Shown: positions 2,717 to 14,345 of the stretch, in pieces | How the letters are laid out: each line of letters opens with the position of its first letter | Numbering within the stretch: the first letter of the stretch is position 1 | NCBI GenBank assembly: GCA_016840405.1 | Contig: JAEOSK010000041.1 | Location: 1-23,435, forward strand | DNA from: Candidatus Hermodarchaeum yapensis | Lineage (GTDB): Archaea > Asgardarchaeota > Hermodarchaeia > Hermodarchaeales > Hermodarchaeaceae | Reading direction: 5' to 3' | Length of the DNA: 23,435 nt | Notes under the pieces: model-generated | What the model was told of the DNA's origin: nothing | What the model saw: only the letters and a program-made list of their open reading frames with translations | The model's database searches: none | Made by a program: the position numbers and the translations under genes

Positions 2717-2796
2717 TGGTGCGGGGGCCGGGCTTCGAACCCGGGAACTCCTACGAGACAGGATCTTAAGTCCTGCGCCTTTGACCAAACTTGGCT
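2717..2796 (-). pseudogene. tRNA-Leu(TAA) copy lacking a pairable 5' acceptor strand (nt 9 to CCA only); att-like duplicate or candidate split-tRNA 3' part
   Basis: Minus strand reads AGCCAAGTTTGGTCAAAGGCGCAGGAC-TTAAGA-TCCTG...GGTTCGAAGCCCGGCCCCCGCACCA. Upstream sequence (AAGGGGCT plus hairpin) cannot pair with CCCCCGC. Confidence 0.8.
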
Positions 2797-2891
2797 CTTG
2801 AGTCTACGGGGGGTAGAAAGCCCCTTCGGCTAACTCTATTATTTAATATAGGAAGTAGATTCCTGTTGTTACGGAGTGGGTTCTATTACAG

Positions 2892-4085
2892 GTGAATAAA
2901 GATGAAAGCATTGCGGAGCCTTATCGGTGGGTAATTCTTTGCTTGGCATGGTTGGGTTATTTTAGTGCTGGCATAGTTGCCTCCGCTCTCCCTCCCCTGG
3001 TTTCTCAGATATCAGCCGATTTGGGGTTATCAGGCACTCAAATGGGGGTGGTTCTCGGAATTGGGACATTAATGGTGGTTCCGTTAGCAATCCCGTTCGG
3101 GCTTCTTTTTGATCGAATTAACATTAAATGGGCAACCTTCGCCGGATTATTACTTATAGCCCTATCAGCGTTTTTACGAACCTTTGCCATAAGCTTTGAA
3201 AGTCTGGTTCTTTTTGTGGCTATTTTTGGAATTGGGAATACGTTAATCGTTATTGGCCTGGCGAAAATTATCGCGTTGTGGTTTGCTGGAAATGAGCGAG
3301 CAACGGCTTCGGGTATTTATGTCACAGGATTTGCCATAGGAAGTGGAATCGTTCTCATAATAACCAATAGTCTAATTGTACCACTTTTAGGAACCTGGCA
3401 AAATGCGTTCATGTTTTATGGACTTCTCGGGTTCCTTTTCGCTGCCCTTTGGCTCATATTTTGTAAAGAAATTTCACGGACGCAAGTCGAAGAACCTTTC
3501 CTTGGTGCCTTGAGAGAGAGCACGTCAACATTGGTGAAAGAGAAATATATCTGGTTAATTGGGTGCTTCGCCTTTCTGCTTTCTATTACCAGCTTTGCTT
3601 TCAGTGGGTGGCTTCCAACGTTTCTTGAAACAAAGGGCTTGACACCAGCTGTTGCTGGCGTAATCGCGTCAATCCCCCCTTGGATTGGAATCTTTGGTAG
3701 CATTACCATACCTAGACTCGGAAAACCCGGTTCGAGAAGGCTACTTCTCCTCATCCTTTTTCTGATTCAAGGCCTATTGGTATACCTCGTGATATGGACT
3801 TTTGGGGTACCTTTAATTGTAGTTTTAATCCTGTACGGATTCAGTTATGCTGGAGTATGGCCACTGCTCCTCGTAATACTCATGGATTTTCCAACCATTG
3901 GCGCAAAGTACATGGGCACCGCAACCGGGCTCTTAGCCACGTTTGGGGCAAGTGGCGGGTTTATCGGACCATTGATGGTAGGATATTTAGTCGAATTGAC
4001 AGGCGCCCTTACCCTTGGTTTCATTTTTCTGGCATTGATTCTAGTTGTGACTTTAATTCCTATACTCCTACTTCGCGAAAAATAA
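2892..4085 (+). CDS. Major facilitator superfamily transporter (CynX/NimT-like)
   Basis: 397 aa, about 12 hydrophobic segments, motif-A-like GLLFDRINIK, and WFAGNERATASGIY. Confidence 0.9.
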   Translation: MNKDESIAEPYRWVILCLAWLGYFSAGIVASALPPLVSQISADLGLSGTQMGVVLGIGTLMVVPLAIPFGLLFDRINIKWATFAGLLLIALSAFLRTFAISFESLVLFVAIFGIGNTLIVIGLAKIIALWFAGNERATASGIYVTGFAIGSGIVLIITNSLIVPLLGTWQNAFMFYGLLGFLFAALWLIFCKEISRTQVEEPFLGALRESTSTLVKEKYIWLIGCFAFLLSITSFAFSGWLPTFLETKGLTPAVAGVIASIPPWIGIFGSITIPRLGKPGSRRLLLLILFLIQGLLVYLVIWTFGVPLIVVLILYGFSYAGVWPLLLVILMDFPTIGAKYMGTATGLLATFGASGGFIGPLMVGYLVELTGALTLGFIFLALILVVTLIPILLLREK

Positions 4086-4225
4086 ACAACAAACCTTGGA
4101 TATTGCAACCCACTACTGTCTTTTTTCTAGCTCCTCGTTAGAGTATAAACAATATGGACTCTACACGATGGATATTTATCGTAAAGAGTTACAGTAGTTC
4201 AAGCTTGGGCTTCTCGGTGTTTCTA

Positions 4226-5215
4226 GTGGATCCAATTAGTAAAAAGATCATACAAGAGTTAATGGGCAATTGCCGCATCACATATCGACAGATGGCAAAG
4301 AAAACGGGGATAACGGCAACAAGCGTTAAAAAACGCATTTCAAAACTATGGAAGAATAGGGTCATCAGCCGACCCTATGTGCAGCTATCCTTAGCGATGC
4401 GTGATGCTGAGATTTCCCATACTGACCTGACCACTGATGGGACGGAACATGATGAACAACTTATCACTCAACTGGGCTCACATCCATCAGTATTTGGGGC
4501 TGTTCGGGTTGGTCTGCATAAATTTGCATCAGGTGGAAACGTTGTTGGACCCACAGGGCTCTTTGAGTTGGGACGATTTTACCGAAAGATTAGTTGTGTT
4601 AAAGAAGTGGATATCCAATTGGTCCGACCTGTGGGACCCTCACCAGTACCACCCAGTCAACTATACATCTATCGCGGACAAAAAATGACCTTCACTGATC
4701 CACAACTTAAGATCCTCCAGTTGTTATGGCAAAATGCACGGATTTCCGCAAAAGATATCGCAGAGCAGACTAACTACTCCGCACGACGAGTCGGTCAAAT
4801 TCTCCGTGAACTACAAACTGGAGGGGGTTTATACTTCATGGTCCACATGCGACCAAGCATGATGGACTCTATTCCATTTTGGCTTATCATCGATTATGAC
4901 GAAATAAAAATTGAACCATATGCTGCTGTTAAGTGGGTCTATGAGCAATTCCCAGATGCATATTGGAATGCCTGGCTATTTGCTAACAAACCTACTATCA
5001 TGCACTTTTGCACGGCAGAGACTATTCGAACGATTTCAGATATAGTAAACATCACCAAAGAGGCTCCATTTGCAAAACAAGTTCGTTCAGAGATATTCAG
5101 GCCTCAAAAATACTTTGTCGGACCTGGTTACATTCAATTAGGGGAACTGTTAGGGATCAAAGTTTCAAATCATGAAGCGGAATACTATAGTGGAAAAAGT
5201 GAACATGGCTTCTGA
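4226..5215 (+). CDS. Lrp/AsnC-family transcriptional regulator with two winged-HTH modules
   Basis: DPISKKIIQELMGNCRITYRQMAKKTGITATSVKKRISKL and TDPQLKILQLLWQNARISAKDIAEQTNYSARRV. Start placed at in-frame GTG 4226, the start of the first HTH (ORF track opens at 4154). Confidence 0.85.
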   Translation: MDPISKKIIQELMGNCRITYRQMAKKTGITATSVKKRISKLWKNRVISRPYVQLSLAMRDAEISHTDLTTDGTEHDEQLITQLGSHPSVFGAVRVGLHKFASGGNVVGPTGLFELGRFYRKISCVKEVDIQLVRPVGPSPVPPSQLYIYRGQKMTFTDPQLKILQLLWQNARISAKDIAEQTNYSARRVGQILRELQTGGGLYFMVHMRPSMMDSIPFWLIIDYDEIKIEPYAAVKWVYEQFPDAYWNAWLFANKPTIMHFCTAETIRTISDIVNITKEAPFAKQVRSEIFRPQKYFVGPGYIQLGELLGIKVSNHEAEYYSGKSEHGF

Positions 5216-5418
5216 TCGGTATTTTTTGGATTTCAGAACTCCTTCTCGGTTCAGATTATCAACCAACTGAATAATAATATTCCAATACTAGCGACTTTTT
5301 TCTTCATCTTTCAACCCTCATAGTTCACAGCTGTTTAAATGATGGTTCTGGACTTAAACAGAACGCAACAATAGCGTCTTCCAACAATTGGAGGGGCGAC
5401 CTATTGGAGGTATTATTC

Positions 5419-6594
5419 ATGAGGTTAAAATCGCGTAAAGTGATTACAATAGCCATCGGGCTGTGTTTTCTATTAGCTCTAGCCAGCGTCTCCGTTGGAA
5501 CTACTACTGCTTGGCGAAGACATCGAACCTATTTGGTATCCGCATCAGGAGATACATCGGGTGTCACCGATACAGCCCAGATTCAAGCCGCATTTGACAA
5601 AGCTGTTGAGCATCGAAGAAGTACAGTGAAGTTAGGTCCAGGTACCTTCTATCTGAACAAGGAAATCGTTGCTGTGAATTTCGATGGTACTTTCAAGGGC
5701 GCAGGGAAAGGAAAAACCATCATTCAAAACACGGAAAACCATCCATTCCCTCTTCTATCAGATCCATATTTTGGTCTTGATGGACCGCAACAAGTTGGAT
5801 TTGCTCTGATGTTTCTTTTCTACCAAAACGCCGATACAGAGAGTACGGCACATCATCCATATACAATAAAAATATCTGATATGACTATTCGTGTTGTGGG
5901 CGAATCCGAGGAATGGCAACTTCCCGGTTGGCCGGATTTCTTGCCCAACCCCACATCCATTAACCCTATCATGGTCACAGGCATAGCTAGGATGGAATAT
6001 GTTGAAGGCGAAATCTCCTACTTTAACCTATTTTGTCAGCGGTTGGAACTCGAAGGAATCATCAGTAGTTCCTACTTCTTGTTTGGGTCTAGTGCAGCGA
6101 ACGGTATCCAATTTGCCGGTTCTAACTGGCTTTATATGAGTCAATTGACAGGCATCTTCTCAGTGAAGGATTGCACCTTCAAATCGATATGTTGTGGTAT
6201 CTGTGCCTTGGGCGTATTCAAAGACTCCCTGCTCCATATCCAACACAATACTTTTGACGGTGTCGCGTGGGGAATGGAACTCTATCCCGGGAACATGTTA
6301 TGCATCATCGTGAACAATGACATGCATGAGGTTGGTACGCTTCCATCGTTATTTGGAGGCATTGGAATTTACCTCGAACAACATGATGCTGGTCCAGGAA
6401 AAATCCTAATCATTCGGAACACCATCGAATGTGCTGATTACGCAATCGGGATGTTGCTCGATGATGTGACAACATCACTCTCTGGATGTGTGATTTACAA
6501 CACCATAATTCTCGAGGGTCCCAACGCAGTGGGCATCATTAACCTTTGCAACGAAAATGTCAAATTCCATCACAACCCAATTCTTGGACCTTAA
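5419..6594 (+). CDS. Secreted right-handed beta-helix (pectate-lyase-like) protein
   Basis: GGAGGT RBS before ATG 5419; signal peptide; GDTSGVTDTAQIQAAFDKA...VKLGPGTFYL N-terminal motif; repeated I-x-x-N-T-I/F units at the C-terminus. Confidence 0.75.
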   Translation: MRLKSRKVITIAIGLCFLLALASVSVGTTTAWRRHRTYLVSASGDTSGVTDTAQIQAAFDKAVEHRRSTVKLGPGTFYLNKEIVAVNFDGTFKGAGKGKTIIQNTENHPFPLLSDPYFGLDGPQQVGFALMFLFYQNADTESTAHHPYTIKISDMTIRVVGESEEWQLPGWPDFLPNPTSINPIMVTGIARMEYVEGEISYFNLFCQRLELEGIISSSYFLFGSSAANGIQFAGSNWLYMSQLTGIFSVKDCTFKSICCGICALGVFKDSLLHIQHNTFDGVAWGMELYPGNMLCIIVNNDMHEVGTLPSLFGGIGIYLEQHDAGPGKILIIRNTIECADYAIGMLLDDVTTSLSGCVIYNTIILEGPNAVGIINLCNENVKFHHNPILGP

Positions 6595-6627
6595 ATCAGT
6601 GATAGCGAAAAACACTCACAGCCATCT

Positions 6628-6659
6628 GGGAGGCACCTGCCTCCCTCTCCATCTTTTTC
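6628..6659 (+). terminator. Hairpin plus pyrimidine/T tract after the beta-helix gene
   Basis: GGGAGGC-ACCT-GCCTCCC followed by TCTCCATCTTTTTT. Confidence 0.55.
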
Positions 6660-6716
6660 ATTGGTGAACTGAATAGAAACCTCCAAAGTGTCTTATTGAG
6701 TTGGGAGAGGTAAACA

Positions 6717-7154
6717 ATGGAGTATTCAGATCTTGTTAAAGGCTATCAGCAATTAATTAACAAGCCTAAGGCGGCTGCTCTCAAAGATGACCATGCTGAA
6801 CAAGTTGTGACAATCCATGAAACTGTATGGCTTAGGATTCTTCTCATTCACAGCCTGAAGAATCCTGATTTGGTAAGACTTGTAGTTGAGGTGTCTTTTC
6901 CGAATTGGGTATATGATATTTCCATGTCACTCAATAATGACGGAGTCATTAAGGAATCGTCACTCGGTCTTCCAGATGTATTGAAGGAGATGGTAATCCA
7001 CTTAGAGTATCTCCATAGATTGAGTGATGTGGGATTTCGGTTAGAGCTTTTAGCAGAGGAAGGGATTTGGAGTGCCTCGACTGAACTTAAACAACCTCCA
7101 TCGAAAGAACTATTCAAAGCTCTTGTACCCACAAAATCAATGGCTAAACACTGA
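6717..7154 (+). CDS. Hypothetical protein
   Basis: 145-aa ORF with GAGGT RBS and ATG, globular composition; no motif recognised. Confidence 0.75.
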   Translation: MEYSDLVKGYQQLINKPKAAALKDDHAEQVVTIHETVWLRILLIHSLKNPDLVRLVVEVSFPNWVYDISMSLNNDGVIKESSLGLPDVLKEMVIHLEYLHRLSDVGFRLELLAEEGIWSASTELKQPPSKELFKALVPTKSMAKH

Positions 7155-7304
7155 TACAAGGTTAGTATTCGACTTGGGAATATCGGTCATTGTTTGTGTT
7201 ATAACGGAAAAAGAGTGGGCAACCTGTATCAACTTGCCACACACCAGAAACGGAATTTATTATGTTTAAACTCGTGTCCTCCAGAATTCTTGAAAAAATG
7301 AAAT

Positions 7305-7415
7305 TGGTGCGGGGGCCGGGCTTCGAACCCGGGAACTCCTACGAGACAGGATCTTAAGTCCTGCGCCTTTGACCAAGCTTGGCTGTGAGGTCTATGTTGC
7401 GGTAGAAACCCCCGC
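7305..7415 (-). tRNA. tRNA-Leu(TAA) with a 23-nt non-canonical intron at position 8/9 (7385-7407), CCA encoded
   Basis: GCGGGGGT|TTCTACCGCAACATAGACCTCAC|AGCCAAGCTTGGTCAAAGGC...; removing the insert restores a complete type II cloverleaf. BHB: GGC/GCC, GGGG/CCTC, bulges GT|T and AC|A, outer TCTA/TAGA. Confidence 0.8.
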
Positions 7416-7587
7416 CGCTTAGTCTTCGGGACGCTGACCCTTTGGACAGGTCCCCCGCATAACAGGTGGAAAATCAAAGTTGTGTGGTTGCTTAAAATTG
7501 CTTCGTGTTGGAGATGGGGTACTAGGATTATTGGTGTCATGAACGGCTAGAATAAGGCTTAAAAGGTACGGGCTGTGGTTTAGTGCT

Positions 7588-7771
7588 GCCGAGGTAGCTT
7601 AGCCTGGTTGAGCGCCAGACTAGTAACCATTCTTGAAATATTAGGGTGATACTCATAGGGCTTTGCCCCAGGGTCAGAATAATGTGATGACTGGCGCACC
7701 GGAGAAATCTGGAGGTCGCGGGTTCGAATCGAAGCCCGGTGGGTTTCGCGGAAGGCCCGCCCTCGGCACCA
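7588..7771 (+). tRNA. Elongator-type tRNA-Met(CAT) with three introns: 30/31 (7619-7650), 37/38 (7658-7706), 59/60 (7729-7754)
   Basis: Acceptor GCCGAGG/CCTCGGC-A-CCA; spliced anticodon arm CCAGA-CTCATAA-TCTGG. BHBs: CGCC/GGTG with CTAGTA/TATTAG; CTCA/GGAG (one mismatch); TTCG/CGGA with CGAAGCCC/GGGTTTCG. Confidence 0.9.
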
Positions 7772-7784
7772 TTCGAGTATGTGA

Positions 7785-7861
7785 GCCTCAGTGGCATAGC
7801 ATGGTAGCGCACCACCTTGGTAAGGTGGGGGTCCCGGGTTCGAATCCCGGCTGAGGCTCCA
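7785..7861 (+). tRNA. tRNA-Thr(GGT), intronless, CCA encoded; 13 nt downstream of tRNA-Met (probably co-transcribed)
   Basis: GCCTCAG/CTGAGGC-T-CCA; CCACC-TT-GGT-AA-GGTGG; CCGGG-TTCGAAT-CCCGG. Confidence 0.95.
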
Positions 7862-7934
7862 ATTTTTCATTTATCGTCAGGTCTCTGTTGGAAATAAATC
7901 CGTGTACTGGTTAATTTGGTGTTGTGTTGGTTCA

Positions 7935-9272
7935 ATGGGTCAAACAGAGACCATGCCTTTACCTGAAGTAGTAGAATTTTCTAATCGATCACAAAAAGAA
8001 CTTCAAAATCATACCCAAATAATTGAATCAGTTACACGAACTGTTTGGCTTAATTTACCTGAAGTTACTTCGGATGTTGTCTTTCGACTAAGACGATTAT
8101 ACACCCGAGCAATCAGACGGTTTATTATCAGTCTAAAGGAGGGAAACTGCACAGAAAAGGAAATCTACCATGAACTCAGGAAGCATTCAACTTTTGCTCA
8201 ACTTCCCGCGCGCATGCTAGATCGGGCAGGACGAGAAGCCTATCAATGGTTTTCTTATTGGCGAAAGGAACGCTTTCTAACTAATGAATTACTGAAGAAC
8301 TGGGCTAAGTGGGCTTCGAAGAATGGTATTGATTTACCTGAACCTCTAATGGGAGAAAACCGCATAGTTTCTTATTCAGGAAACCTCAAAGGTTGGCCAG
8401 GCAGTCAACGTGGTCAATGGCCTCAAACAAATCTACGGATATTCATTGACTCAGACTCCCAGGATTTCCATGTATCCATTGATAAGGTGATTATCAAAAC
8501 ACGGGCTGTTATTGGTGGCACACCTGAAAAGCTTCTTCGCCAAGCGCTCAATGGAAAAAAAGGATATACGGTTGGGGCTCCTAGGCTCATTAACCGTGAA
8601 GGCAAGGTCTACTTAGCTGTACCAGTGACAACTAACGTCTCAATCCCAAAGATAGAAAATTTAACCCATCCAACAGTGATAGGTGTGGATTTAGGAATAA
8701 ATACTCTTGCTGCTGCTGTAGCAATTTCCACTGATGAACGAATACTTCCTGCAAAAGTAGTATCTGGAAAACGGCTTAAACATCAGTTAAGACGGCTTTG
8801 GGGAAAACGAAGAAAAGCTTCAAGATTGAAAAAGTCTGAGGAAATTCAAGCCCTTGATAAAAAAACCAAACGTACCATTCAACATTGGACTAACACAACT
8901 GCAAACGAAGTTGTACGGTATGCAACCAAATTCAATCAACCAGTTATTTCGCTTGAAAATCTTAGTACGTATCAAGCCACTCGTAGAAGAACCCCTTGGG
9001 CAAACCCCCAACTAAGAGACCAGCTTGGTAAATGGGCTAGAGGAGAAATTGGCAAAACCATCCAAAGAAACGCTGCATTACAAGGCATTCCTGTCATTTG
9101 GGTAAATGCAGCTTATTCGAGTCGAATCTGCCCTCGAGGATGCCTTTGCATGCTAACAAGATCTAGCCGTTCCGTTTTTCAGTGTCCTGCTTGTGGTGTC
9201 AAACTTCCAAGAGATATCAACGCTGCGATTGAACTAGCACGTCGCGGTATACGTCTAATAAAGAAATGTTAA
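7935..9272 (+). CDS. tnpB: TnpB/Cas12f-like RNA-guided endonuclease, catalytic residues intact, no adjacent transposase or CRISPR array
   Basis: RuvC-I VIGVDLGINTLA, RuvC-II ISLENLS, Zn ribbon VNAAYSSRICPRGC...FQCPACG, RuvC-III RDINAAIELARRG. Start taken as ATG 7935 (ORF opens at GTG 7902). Confidence 0.9.
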   Translation: MGQTETMPLPEVVEFSNRSQKELQNHTQIIESVTRTVWLNLPEVTSDVVFRLRRLYTRAIRRFIISLKEGNCTEKEIYHELRKHSTFAQLPARMLDRAGREAYQWFSYWRKERFLTNELLKNWAKWASKNGIDLPEPLMGENRIVSYSGNLKGWPGSQRGQWPQTNLRIFIDSDSQDFHVSIDKVIIKTRAVIGGTPEKLLRQALNGKKGYTVGAPRLINREGKVYLAVPVTTNVSIPKIENLTHPTVIGVDLGINTLAAAVAISTDERILPAKVVSGKRLKHQLRRLWGKRRKASRLKKSEEIQALDKKTKRTIQHWTNTTANEVVRYATKFNQPVISLENLSTYQATRRRTPWANPQLRDQLGKWARGEIGKTIQRNAALQGIPVIWVNAAYSSRICPRGCLCMLTRSSRSVFQCPACGVKLPRDINAAIELARRGIRLIKKC

Positions 9273-10690: not shown

Positions 10691-11287
10691 TCATTTTTCT
10701 GCGGCAATATCGGCTGGTGCTACAAGATAGTAGGTGGTTTCGCCCTGTCGATCCAATACAGCAAGCATGAGTTTTTTCCGATTTCTTTTCGCCTGTTTGC
10801 TAAAAGCATCTAGCTCTGTGACTTTCAGGGGTGATCCCTCTGAAATGGCGCAAACAAAGTATTTTGCTGTAGCTTCGTTCAATTTTGCTCCCCGAGGATA
10901 GACGCGAAATAATAATCCTTTCCCGTATCCTGTACGAACGACATATCCTCTACTTCGCAAGTCACTGTAAACCAAGAACCGAGTCCAAAGTCCTGGGTGT
11001 CCTTCTGCTAACCGTTCAAGTAGATCTGAAAATTCGAGCTTAGTACCTTCTGTGTCATGAACTTGAATGCGTTCGCGTCGGCTTAGCAACAAGGCTTCTT
11101 CAGGTTCCAAGGTTAACTTTGCGGTGCTCGTCAAGGTTCCATAATACCCGGCTTCATACAGTACGGGCGCATATTCTCCCTTCACTACTACGCGTCCTCG
11201 TACAAATTTCGCTGGAATTGCCTCATCTGGAAGGTGAGACCGTTCGCTCTCTGAGGCAGTTTTTTTCACCGGTTTTTCTCCAGCCAT
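10691..11287 (-). CDS. endA: tRNA-intron (splicing) endonuclease subunit, probably the non-catalytic/structural subunit
   Basis: FLVYSDLRSRGYVVRTG...FRVYPRG...RKKLMLAVLDRQGETTYY is the EndA fold signature. The catalytic His position reads Thr (EATAKYFV). Confidence 0.88.
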   Translation of the reverse strand: MAGEKPVKKTASESERSHLPDEAIPAKFVRGRVVVKGEYAPVLYEAGYYGTLTSTAKLTLEPEEALLLSRRERIQVHDTEGTKLEFSDLLERLAEGHPGLWTRFLVYSDLRSRGYVVRTGYGKGLLFRVYPRGAKLNEATAKYFVCAISEGSPLKVTELDAFSKQAKRNRKKLMLAVLDRQGETTYYLVAPADIAAEK

Positions 11288-13674: not shown

Positions 13675-14193
13675 TTAGCGATGGTTGTGTCTTCCATAGT
13701 CATCCCAAACTACATGCATGGGATGCTTTGGGAGGTCTTTAAGGAGCTCGATGAAGGTTGTGGGTTTAAAGTTGACCTCTTTGAGTTTCGATATGTCGAA
13801 CCATTTGAAGTCTAGCACCCAGCTTCTATCTGTTGAATGTTGTTCTTCTTGCCCAAGAAATTCATCTTGTTCCCATACTCCTGTTGCTTTTGCGGGTGTT
13901 ACGAGGAAATAGAATTCAATGGAATGAAACTTCTTTCCATTGAAAATAAAAAAATTCTCAAGTATCCACAGGAGGCGTTGAACCTTGATTTCGAAATTTG
14001 TTTCTTCAAAGAGCTCTCTTTTGACACCTTCTTGAAGGGTCTCGTGCAGGTAAACTTGGCCACCCGGAAGCACCCATAAATCATCATCCTCTAATCGACA
14101 TAGCAAGACTCGGTTCTTCCCATCAAGCATAACACCTACGGCTCTTACAAAAAACGACTCAATCTCCGATTCGATCTTAATCTTCTTTGGCAC
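13675..14193 (-). CDS. NUDIX hydrolase (paralogue of 2060-2608)
   Basis: WVLPGGQVYLHETLQEGVKRELFEET; RLLWILENFF; HSIEFYF. Confidence 0.9.
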   Translation of the reverse strand: MPKKIKIESEIESFFVRAVGVMLDGKNRVLLCRLEDDDLWVLPGGQVYLHETLQEGVKRELFEETNFEIKVQRLLWILENFFIFNGKKFHSIEFYFLVTPAKATGVWEQDEFLGQEEQHSTDRSWVLDFKWFDISKLKEVNFKPTTFIELLKDLPKHPMHVVWDDYGRHNHR

Positions 14194-14345
14194 TACCCAA
14201 ACCTCTCTCGAAACTCAAATTTTAGAGGAAACCTGTCTTTGTTGTCCAATATAAACCCCTAGCCATGAAACGGGCAACATTTTCCCTTTGTTAAGGTCGA
14301 GAAGTAAACGGGGACTTCAAATAGCTACCTGCAGAACCTAATTAC

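Follow-up and report, generated by a model that had tools for sequence, protein, structure and literature searches.

The window, a 23,435-nt stretch of DNA on contig C36 of genome G000 of a Hermodarchaeota (Asgard) archaeon (2.7 Mb in 77 contigs, 86% complete), carries what is very likely a working gene for tRNA-Leu(UAA), the tRNA for leucine codon UUA, interrupted after base 8 of the tRNA by a 23-nt intron of the protein-spliced (EndA/RtcB) type. Upstream of the gene, the leader holds an exact copy of the 5' strand of the acceptor stem, which is predicted to stand in for the true strand while the latter is engaged in the splicing motif. We place the probability of the whole explanation, a spliced intron at position 8/9 together with a role for the leader, at about 0.8; its core is independent of the helper. 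The features on which this account draws are collected in Table 1.

Table 1. Features of the tRNA-Leu(UAA) locus and its surroundings, with two further tRNA genes of the genome. Positions are those of the window unless a contig is named. BHB, bulge-helix-bulge.
Feature	Position	Strand	Remarks
tRNA gene with long insertion at or next to the anticodon loop	1884-1980
Second, 5'-defective copy of tRNA-Leu(UAA)	2717..2836	-	exon 2 at 2796-2717, 79/80 identical; degraded intron and exon 1
Insertion specific to G000	2797-7304		flanked by 80-bp direct repeats of exon 2
MFS transporter	2892-4085		inside insertion
Double-HTH regulator	4154-5215		inside insertion
Two ORFs without family	5404-6594, 6717-7154		inside insertion
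Exon 2, tRNA positions 9-76, anticodon UAA	7305..7384	-	80 nt, CCA encoded; Rfam and in silico splicing
3' acceptor strand	7315-7309	-	inside exon 2
BHB intron between U8 and A9	7385..7407	-	23 nt; sequence, in silico splicing, alignment pairing
Exon 1, tRNA positions 1-8, GCGGGGGU	7408..7415	-	sequence and in silico splicing; invariant in 14/14 orthologs
Leader strand GACUAAGC	7417..7424	-	eight contiguous pairs with D-arm bases GCUUGGUC (7378-7371); extends BHB outer helix
Leader hairpin	7430..7451	-	between leader copy and outer-helix strand; stem-loop in MFE fold
Leader copy of acceptor 5' strand, GCGGGGG	7452..7458	-	identical in 7/7 bases; 43 nt 5' of exon 1
Putative archaeal promoter (BRE/TATA-like box)	7492..7505	-	CGAAGCA and AUUUUAAG region; kept in 13 orthologous loci
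tRNA-Thr(GGU)	7785-7861
TnpB/Cas12f-like gene	7902-9272	+	OrfB_IS605, TNB, and RuvC-like domains; directly after tRNA-Thr(GGU)
EndA paralog (one of two)	10691..11287	-	Pfam tRNA_int_endo and tRNA_int_endo_N; PDB relatives
tRNA gene with long insertion at or next to the anticodon loop	11890-12018		58 nt
tRNA gene with long insertion at or next to the anticodon loop	13526-13630
tRNA-His(GUG), locus L046/L047	G000:C10:14174-14339		three insertions; tRNA-His at 14187-14339
tRNA-Leu(CAA)	G000:C77, exon 1 at 8970	-	22-nt intron at 8/9

A tRNA-Leu gene interrupted after base 8

The unspliced genomic sequence escapes common tRNA annotation. ARAGORN calls no tRNA at the locus, and the Rfam tRNA model returns a partial match over model positions 9-63 that stays below threshold (27.3 bits against a cut-off of 29). 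Once positions 7407-7385 are deleted in silico, ARAGORN recovers tRNA-Leu(taa) as a complete class II tRNA of 88 nt whose stems are all paired. Exon 2 is 100% identical in nine other genomes of the same genus.

The exon–intron junctions fold into a BHB motif that is built in large part from the tRNA itself. [quoted passage not shown] Toward the intron, the inner helix UCUA/UAGA closes the structure; on the exon side, G(-1)G1C2 faces G10C11C12 in an outer helix of 2-3 bp, within which G1-C2 pair with G10-C11. Two 3-nt bulges around a 4-bp helix, with flanking helices h and h', are the attributes of an archaeal EndA-dependent BHB in its strict form (hBHBh'). Since the first base of the intron is U and base 9 of the tRNA is A, the junction cannot slide in G000, and the site is fixed at 8/9.

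A preliminary description of this DNA had proposed a 23-nt intron at 8/9 that leaves an 8-nt 5' exon, flanked by just such a strict motif. Both proposals are upheld: exact removal yields a canonical tRNA whose junction recurs in intronless orthologs, every element of the motif as originally written is present, and the comparative data given below support a functional, spliced intron. The accompanying expectation was that standard scanners would probably report a truncated gene. ARAGORN and Rfam both miss it, but tRNAscan-SE 2.0, when run for archaea, lengthens its candidates by 60 nt and seeks end-proximal BHB introns (PMC8450103).

Two further points concern the transcript. A split or trans-spliced tRNA was considered and rejected because one promoter-like box precedes an unbroken run of exon 1, intron, and exon 2. 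Three metatranscriptome runs with a small share of words in common with the locus, checked over positions 7150-7950, contained no spliced or unspliced transcript and no contig of the locus. The only RNA contig that touches exon 2 was examined as a candidate spliced product and set aside, as it has three mismatches in 35 nt, a different leader, and an uninterrupted GCGGGGGU-AGCC; it comes from another organism, as an intronless gene or transcript. Taking the gene structure together with its comparative record, we are confident that the locus is a working tRNA-Leu(UAA) gene with an intron after base 8, a judgment drawn from sequence comparison.

Conservation of the intron and of its pairing

We searched for exon 2 in 60 related genomes and queried a public collection, with one genome per species, using a pattern in which exon 1 and exon 2 may stand 0-30 nt apart. 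These searches recovered the gene from 14 species-level genomes that belong to two genera of one Hermodarchaeota family, and the 8/9 intron is present in all 14. Its length is 23 nt in ten species of the genus that includes G000 and 14-16 nt in the sister genus. An uninterrupted tRNA-Leu(UAA) elsewhere, which the preliminary description had regarded as evidence against the intron, is found neither in the G000 assembly (86% complete) nor in the 18 other family genomes searched. In five additional genomes of the genus (75-87% complete), a renewed search with the anticodon arm yielded no tRNA-Leu(UAA) of any form.

Outside this family, orthologs in other Asgard families are intronless. Loci L015, L016, and L023 have an unbroken GCGGGGGU-AGCCAAG or a close variant of it; L015 matches the predicted spliced junction exactly, and L016 differs from it by one change. 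The intronless state of these more distant families indicates that the intron was gained in the family studied here.

With all 14 sequences aligned, the proposed structure is paired in 94.5% of cells; sliding the 3' partners one to three columns out of place lowers this share to 20-44%. For the central helix, counted over 13 distinct sequences, the share is 100%. Three pairs have changed on both sides and are still paired, two of them in the inner helix and one in the helix that joins the leader to the D arm. Between species, the inner helix takes the forms UCUA/UAGA, UCUCC/GGAGA, UCAC/GUGA, and UCUAC/GUAGA (4-5 bp). Conserved pairing of this kind, with compensatory changes, is not how a pseudogene behaves. 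At the four loci of the sister genus (L011-L014), the inner helix h' is reduced to 0-2 bp and the motif takes a relaxed bulge-helix-loop form; despite the short intron, these loci retain both the leader copy and the leader/D-arm helix.

Elements of the leader

At 13 tRNA-Leu loci the BRE/TATA-like box is kept, with about 33 nt between it and the leader copy downstream. Its position leads us to infer that transcription starts roughly 10 nt before the copy, which would thus be transcribed near the very 5' end of the precursor. All 14 intron-bearing tRNA-Leu orthologs have the copy, which in one of them reads GCGGGGC, and it is absent upstream of the intronless orthologs.

Nearer to the gene, the strand GACUAAGC pairs with the D arm and lengthens the short outer helix of the BHB motif, which accounts for the good conservation of the leader just 5' of the gene. 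In this leader/D-arm helix, an A-U pair of one genus is replaced by G-C in the other; two further pairs carry a change on a single side and stay paired as wobbles. The stem-loop that separates this strand from the leader copy is conserved, and its closing pairs covary, being A-U/C-G in G000, G002, and G007 and C-G/G-C in the other aligned loci. The 3' side of the same hairpin resembles the 3' acceptor strand of the tRNA. Judging from constrained folds, the spare strand may fold back on the hairpin after splicing, which would make the leader bistable.

Two other identities were considered for the leader element and dropped on inspection by eye: a C/D or H/ACA sRNA, as it has no boxes, and the 5' half of another tRNA, as it has no U8 and no partner half.

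The same site in other tRNA genes

The 8/9 site is not unique to tRNA-Leu(UAA) in G000, where tRNA-His(GUG) and tRNA-Leu(CAA) are interrupted at the same position. Among 37 tRNA genes of the genome with a readable T arm and acceptor stem, an upstream heptamer that pairs fully occurs within 80 nt in three: tRNA-Leu(UAA), tRNA-His(GUG), and one chance match inside a neighboring tRNA gene. Counted by intron status, the copy accompanies three of three genes with an 8/9 intron (Leu-UAA, His-GUG, and Leu-CAA), as against one of 35 other readable tRNA genes, that one by chance. Three other tRNA-Leu genes, read as UAG, CAG, and GAG, share the same acceptor stem and have neither the 8/9 intron nor the copy.

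The tRNA-Leu(CAA) intron is homologous to that of tRNA-Leu(UAA) and resembles the tRNA-Leu(UAA) intron of sister species. Its leader repeats the arrangement described above, with a GCGGGGG copy that precedes exon 1 by about 39 nt and is followed by a hairpin. Further introns lie downstream of the 8/9 intron in this gene.

The tRNA-His gene combines a different sequence with the same geometry. Its structure was set by comparison with intronless orthologs; removal of one segment with low-stringency ARAGORN gave hundreds of spurious calls. The 8/9 intron is 32 nt long, with a CGGG/CCCG central helix and bulges A U|A and A A|G, and the leader copy GCUGGGA lies 13 nt upstream in G000. The gene also has a second insertion of about 22 nt in the D arm, with approximate boundaries, and a canonical 37/38 intron. 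It has A73 as its discriminator and U at base -1, a combination shared with eukaryotes. Within the sister genus, three species have a tRNA-His gene with neither intron nor copy, and one species has both.

These loci also bear on where the copy came from. Intron-bearing tRNA-His loci have a conserved box, different from that of tRNA-Leu, at the same position relative to the leader copy, and in intronless tRNA-His genes that box stands at the same distance from the true exon 1. At tRNA-His, the unit (c)cgu-GCCGGG is visibly repeated. The copy would therefore sit where the 5' end of the gene ancestrally lay relative to the promoter, which fits an origin by short tandem duplication of that end; on the sequences compared, this is probably how the leader copy arose.

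Predicted folding and the proposed role of the leader copy

When the precursor is folded (energies predicted at 37 C), the MFE structure joins the leader copy to the 3' acceptor strand; the T, variable, and anticodon arms form, and the hairpin of leader and BHB motif occupies the place of the D arm. The RNAalifold consensus of ten species contains the same long-range helix between the leader copy and the 3' acceptor strand. Constrained folds with the full leader favor the BHB conformer over the conformer with the true acceptor stem by 5.5-11 kcal/mol in 14 of 14 species. Cutting the leader to 12 nt, or replacing the copy with adenines in silico, brings the difference between the conformers to between -4 and +4 kcal/mol. 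At tRNA-His loci, the copy shifts the balance by 6-9 kcal/mol in constrained folds. In the unconstrained MFE structure, the central helix is shifted by one register, and this fold comes out 2 kcal/mol ahead of the strict BHB. A local complement of the leader copy is present inside the leader as well, and the copy could sit in a hairpin of its own. The acceptor stem is invariant and shows no covariation; the evidence that the copy pairs with the 3' strand consists of sequence identity, co-occurrence, and predicted thermodynamics.

The preliminary description held that splicing must precede folding of the cloverleaf. That statement stands for the acceptor and D arms, whose 5' strands are tied up in the motif. 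It does not extend to the anticodon, variable, and T arms, which, along with a substitute acceptor helix supplied by the leader copy, are predicted to form before splicing. These folding predictions suggest that the leader copy helps splicing in the manner described and that it is probably what makes position 8/9 spliceable, a claim we hold less firmly than the intron itself.

The main competing view accepts the intron as real and spliced, and treats the upstream copy as a functionless leftover of tandem duplication, with EndA binding alone capturing the BHB conformer. The position of the copy at the ancestral 5' end is what such a leftover would show, and the near-equal predicted energies of the tRNA-Leu conformers without the copy suggest that help may not be strictly needed. 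Against this view, the copy is kept in 14 of 14 tRNA-Leu loci and in 14 of 14 intron-bearing tRNA-His loci while neighboring leader bases vary, and no copy is found wherever the 8/9 intron is absent. Within the tRNA-His copies, only the pairing positions 1-6 are kept; positions 7-8 drift, which is the pattern that selection on pairing would produce. The predicted BHB conformer of tRNA-His is 4-11 kcal/mol worse if the copy is missing. Taken as a whole, this makes a functionless copy unlikely, although it is the strongest of the alternatives.

It is much less plausible that the upstream copy is the true exon 1, in which case the intron would be about 66 nt long (7451 to 7385) and the downstream GCGGGGGU would be intron sequence. 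The identical heptamer could form the same central helix with the CCUC of the intron, and it stands at the ancestral distance from the promoter. Yet the heptamer is followed by A or C instead of the near-universal U8, and it is imperfect in one tRNA-Leu species and variable at positions 3, 7, and 8 of the tRNA-His copy, whereas the downstream copy is invariant in every species, U8 included. Moreover, the covarying leader/D-arm helix extends the outer helix only if the downstream copy is used, and the intronless orthologs have U8-A9. We accordingly retain the reading in which the 8-nt segment next to the intron is exon 1 and the upstream heptamer is an accessory strand of the leader.

A second exon 2 and the insertion between the copies

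A second, 5'-defective copy of the gene lies about 4.5 kb away in the window. It has two adjacent acceptor mismatches, a broken outer helix, a 5' bulge of 4 nt, and no leader copy. Lacking a usable 5' exon, it is not an uninterrupted gene of the kind that would speak against the intron. In genomes G002, G014, and G011, the flank with the NUDIX gene, which in G000 follows the second copy, comes immediately after the tRNA-Leu gene; this comparison identifies the 4.5 kb between the copies as an insertion specific to G000 that is missing from the other three genomes. The possibility that the locus is a decaying pseudogene, with the real tRNA-Leu(UAA) in the unassembled 14% of the genome or represented by the second copy, draws on the 86% completeness of the assembly and on the very existence of a nearly identical exon 2, but it is scarcely credible given that exon 1, exon 2, and the BHB motif are conserved with compensatory changes in 14 species, that no family genome has an uninterrupted copy, and that the damaged second copy is unique to G000 and sits at the end of an insertion.

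Searches with Pfam and PHROGs found no integrase in the insertion. A homolog of its 145-aa ORF adjoins a different tRNA gene in G002, which hints that the insertion could be a mobile element that targets tRNA genes. On the other side of tRNA-Leu(UAA), the TnpB/Cas12f-like gene occurs at the same place in G010 and is absent in G002 and G014. The window holds five tRNA genes, and in three of them a long insertion sits at or beside the anticodon loop.

Proposed maturation pathway

With the intron assigned to position 8/9 and the copy to the leader, the following course of maturation can be proposed. The primary transcript would start about 10 nt before the exact leader copy of the acceptor 5' strand. 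Within the precursor, the copy would pair with the 3' acceptor strand, so that a tRNA-like body could form from the substitute acceptor helix and the T, variable, and anticodon arms. The true 5' strand would meanwhile build the BHB hairpin in place of the D arm. A two-subunit EndA would cut both bulges, and RtcB would join U8 to A9. The true 5' strand would then displace the leader copy, the D arm would form, and RNase P would remove the whole leader. We infer the order of events to be EndA, RtcB, strand exchange, and RNase P.

Components of such a pathway are encoded in the genome. Besides the EndA paralog in the window, a second paralog is present on contig C14 (both PF01974), and RtcB and the RNase P RNA are encoded as well. 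[quoted passage not shown] The EndA paralog in the window sits 3.3 kb from the tRNA-Leu gene.

A more general formulation would be a cis-acting folding switch of Asgard archaea, in which a spare acceptor strand, derived from tandem duplication of the 5' end of a gene, is required for splicing and lets introns persist at positions 8/9 to 10/11, which would otherwise clash with the tRNA fold. We regard the arguments for and against this broader proposal as evenly balanced.

Significance and comparison with known systems

To our knowledge, archaeal tRNA introns persist only at sites that allow a BHB motif to form beside an otherwise folded tRNA body. The 8/9 intron tests that rule, as its motif draws the 5' strands of both the acceptor stem and the D stem away from the tRNA. 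The data suggest that two leader elements solve the problem, one by lengthening the splice helix and the other by replacing the borrowed strand. If this is true, the leader copy would represent a new and simple kind of RNA folding helper in tRNA maturation. The same arrangement would explain how genes escape annotation, with the result that MAGs look short of essential tRNAs; within this Hermodarchaeota family, tRNA-Leu(UAA), tRNA-Leu(CAA), and tRNA-His would drop out of annotation based on ARAGORN or Rfam. It would also offer a testable handle on intron gain in the archaeal lineage closest to eukaryotes, where intron gain would go together with tandem duplication of the 5' end.

Noncanonical BHB sites of archaeal tRNAs have been listed at 3/4, 20/21, 22/23, 25/26, 29/30, 30/31, 45/46, 53/54, 56/57, and 59/60 (PMC4090602). 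The 8/9 site does not appear in that list or in the other reviews and papers covered; coverage of the older literature was incomplete, and an earlier listing is possible. Intron-rich tRNA genes of Asgard archaea have been described for Atabeyarchaeia and Freyarchaeia (PMC11291895). The studies taken for comparison focus on Atabeyarchaeia and Jordiarchaeia, and "Hermod" is absent from the text of the preprint (10.64898/2026.10.13.758758). A published description of a leader copy or helper of the acceptor strand was likewise not found in the literature covered, of which the older part was included only partly. BHB introns themselves are well known; what stands out here is the unusual 8/9 site and the arrangement with a leader copy.

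With the noncanonical BHB introns of Thermoproteales and other groups, the intron described here shares two 3-nt bulges around a 4-bp helix, a short length, and presumably the same enzymes, a broad-specificity EndA and RtcB. As in the extreme 3/4 case, the motif borrows bases of the acceptor stem, and here it also borrows bases of the 5' leader. A further parallel exists with the split tRNAs of Nanoarchaeum equitans and Caldivirga maquilingensis and with permuted tRNAs, in which sequence outside the tRNA, in a leader or trailer, likewise pairs with tRNA or intron to assemble the BHB motif. Unlike those systems, the gene described here would yield one transcript in the normal order, and its extra strand is not part of the BHB motif but is predicted to occupy the 3' acceptor strand.
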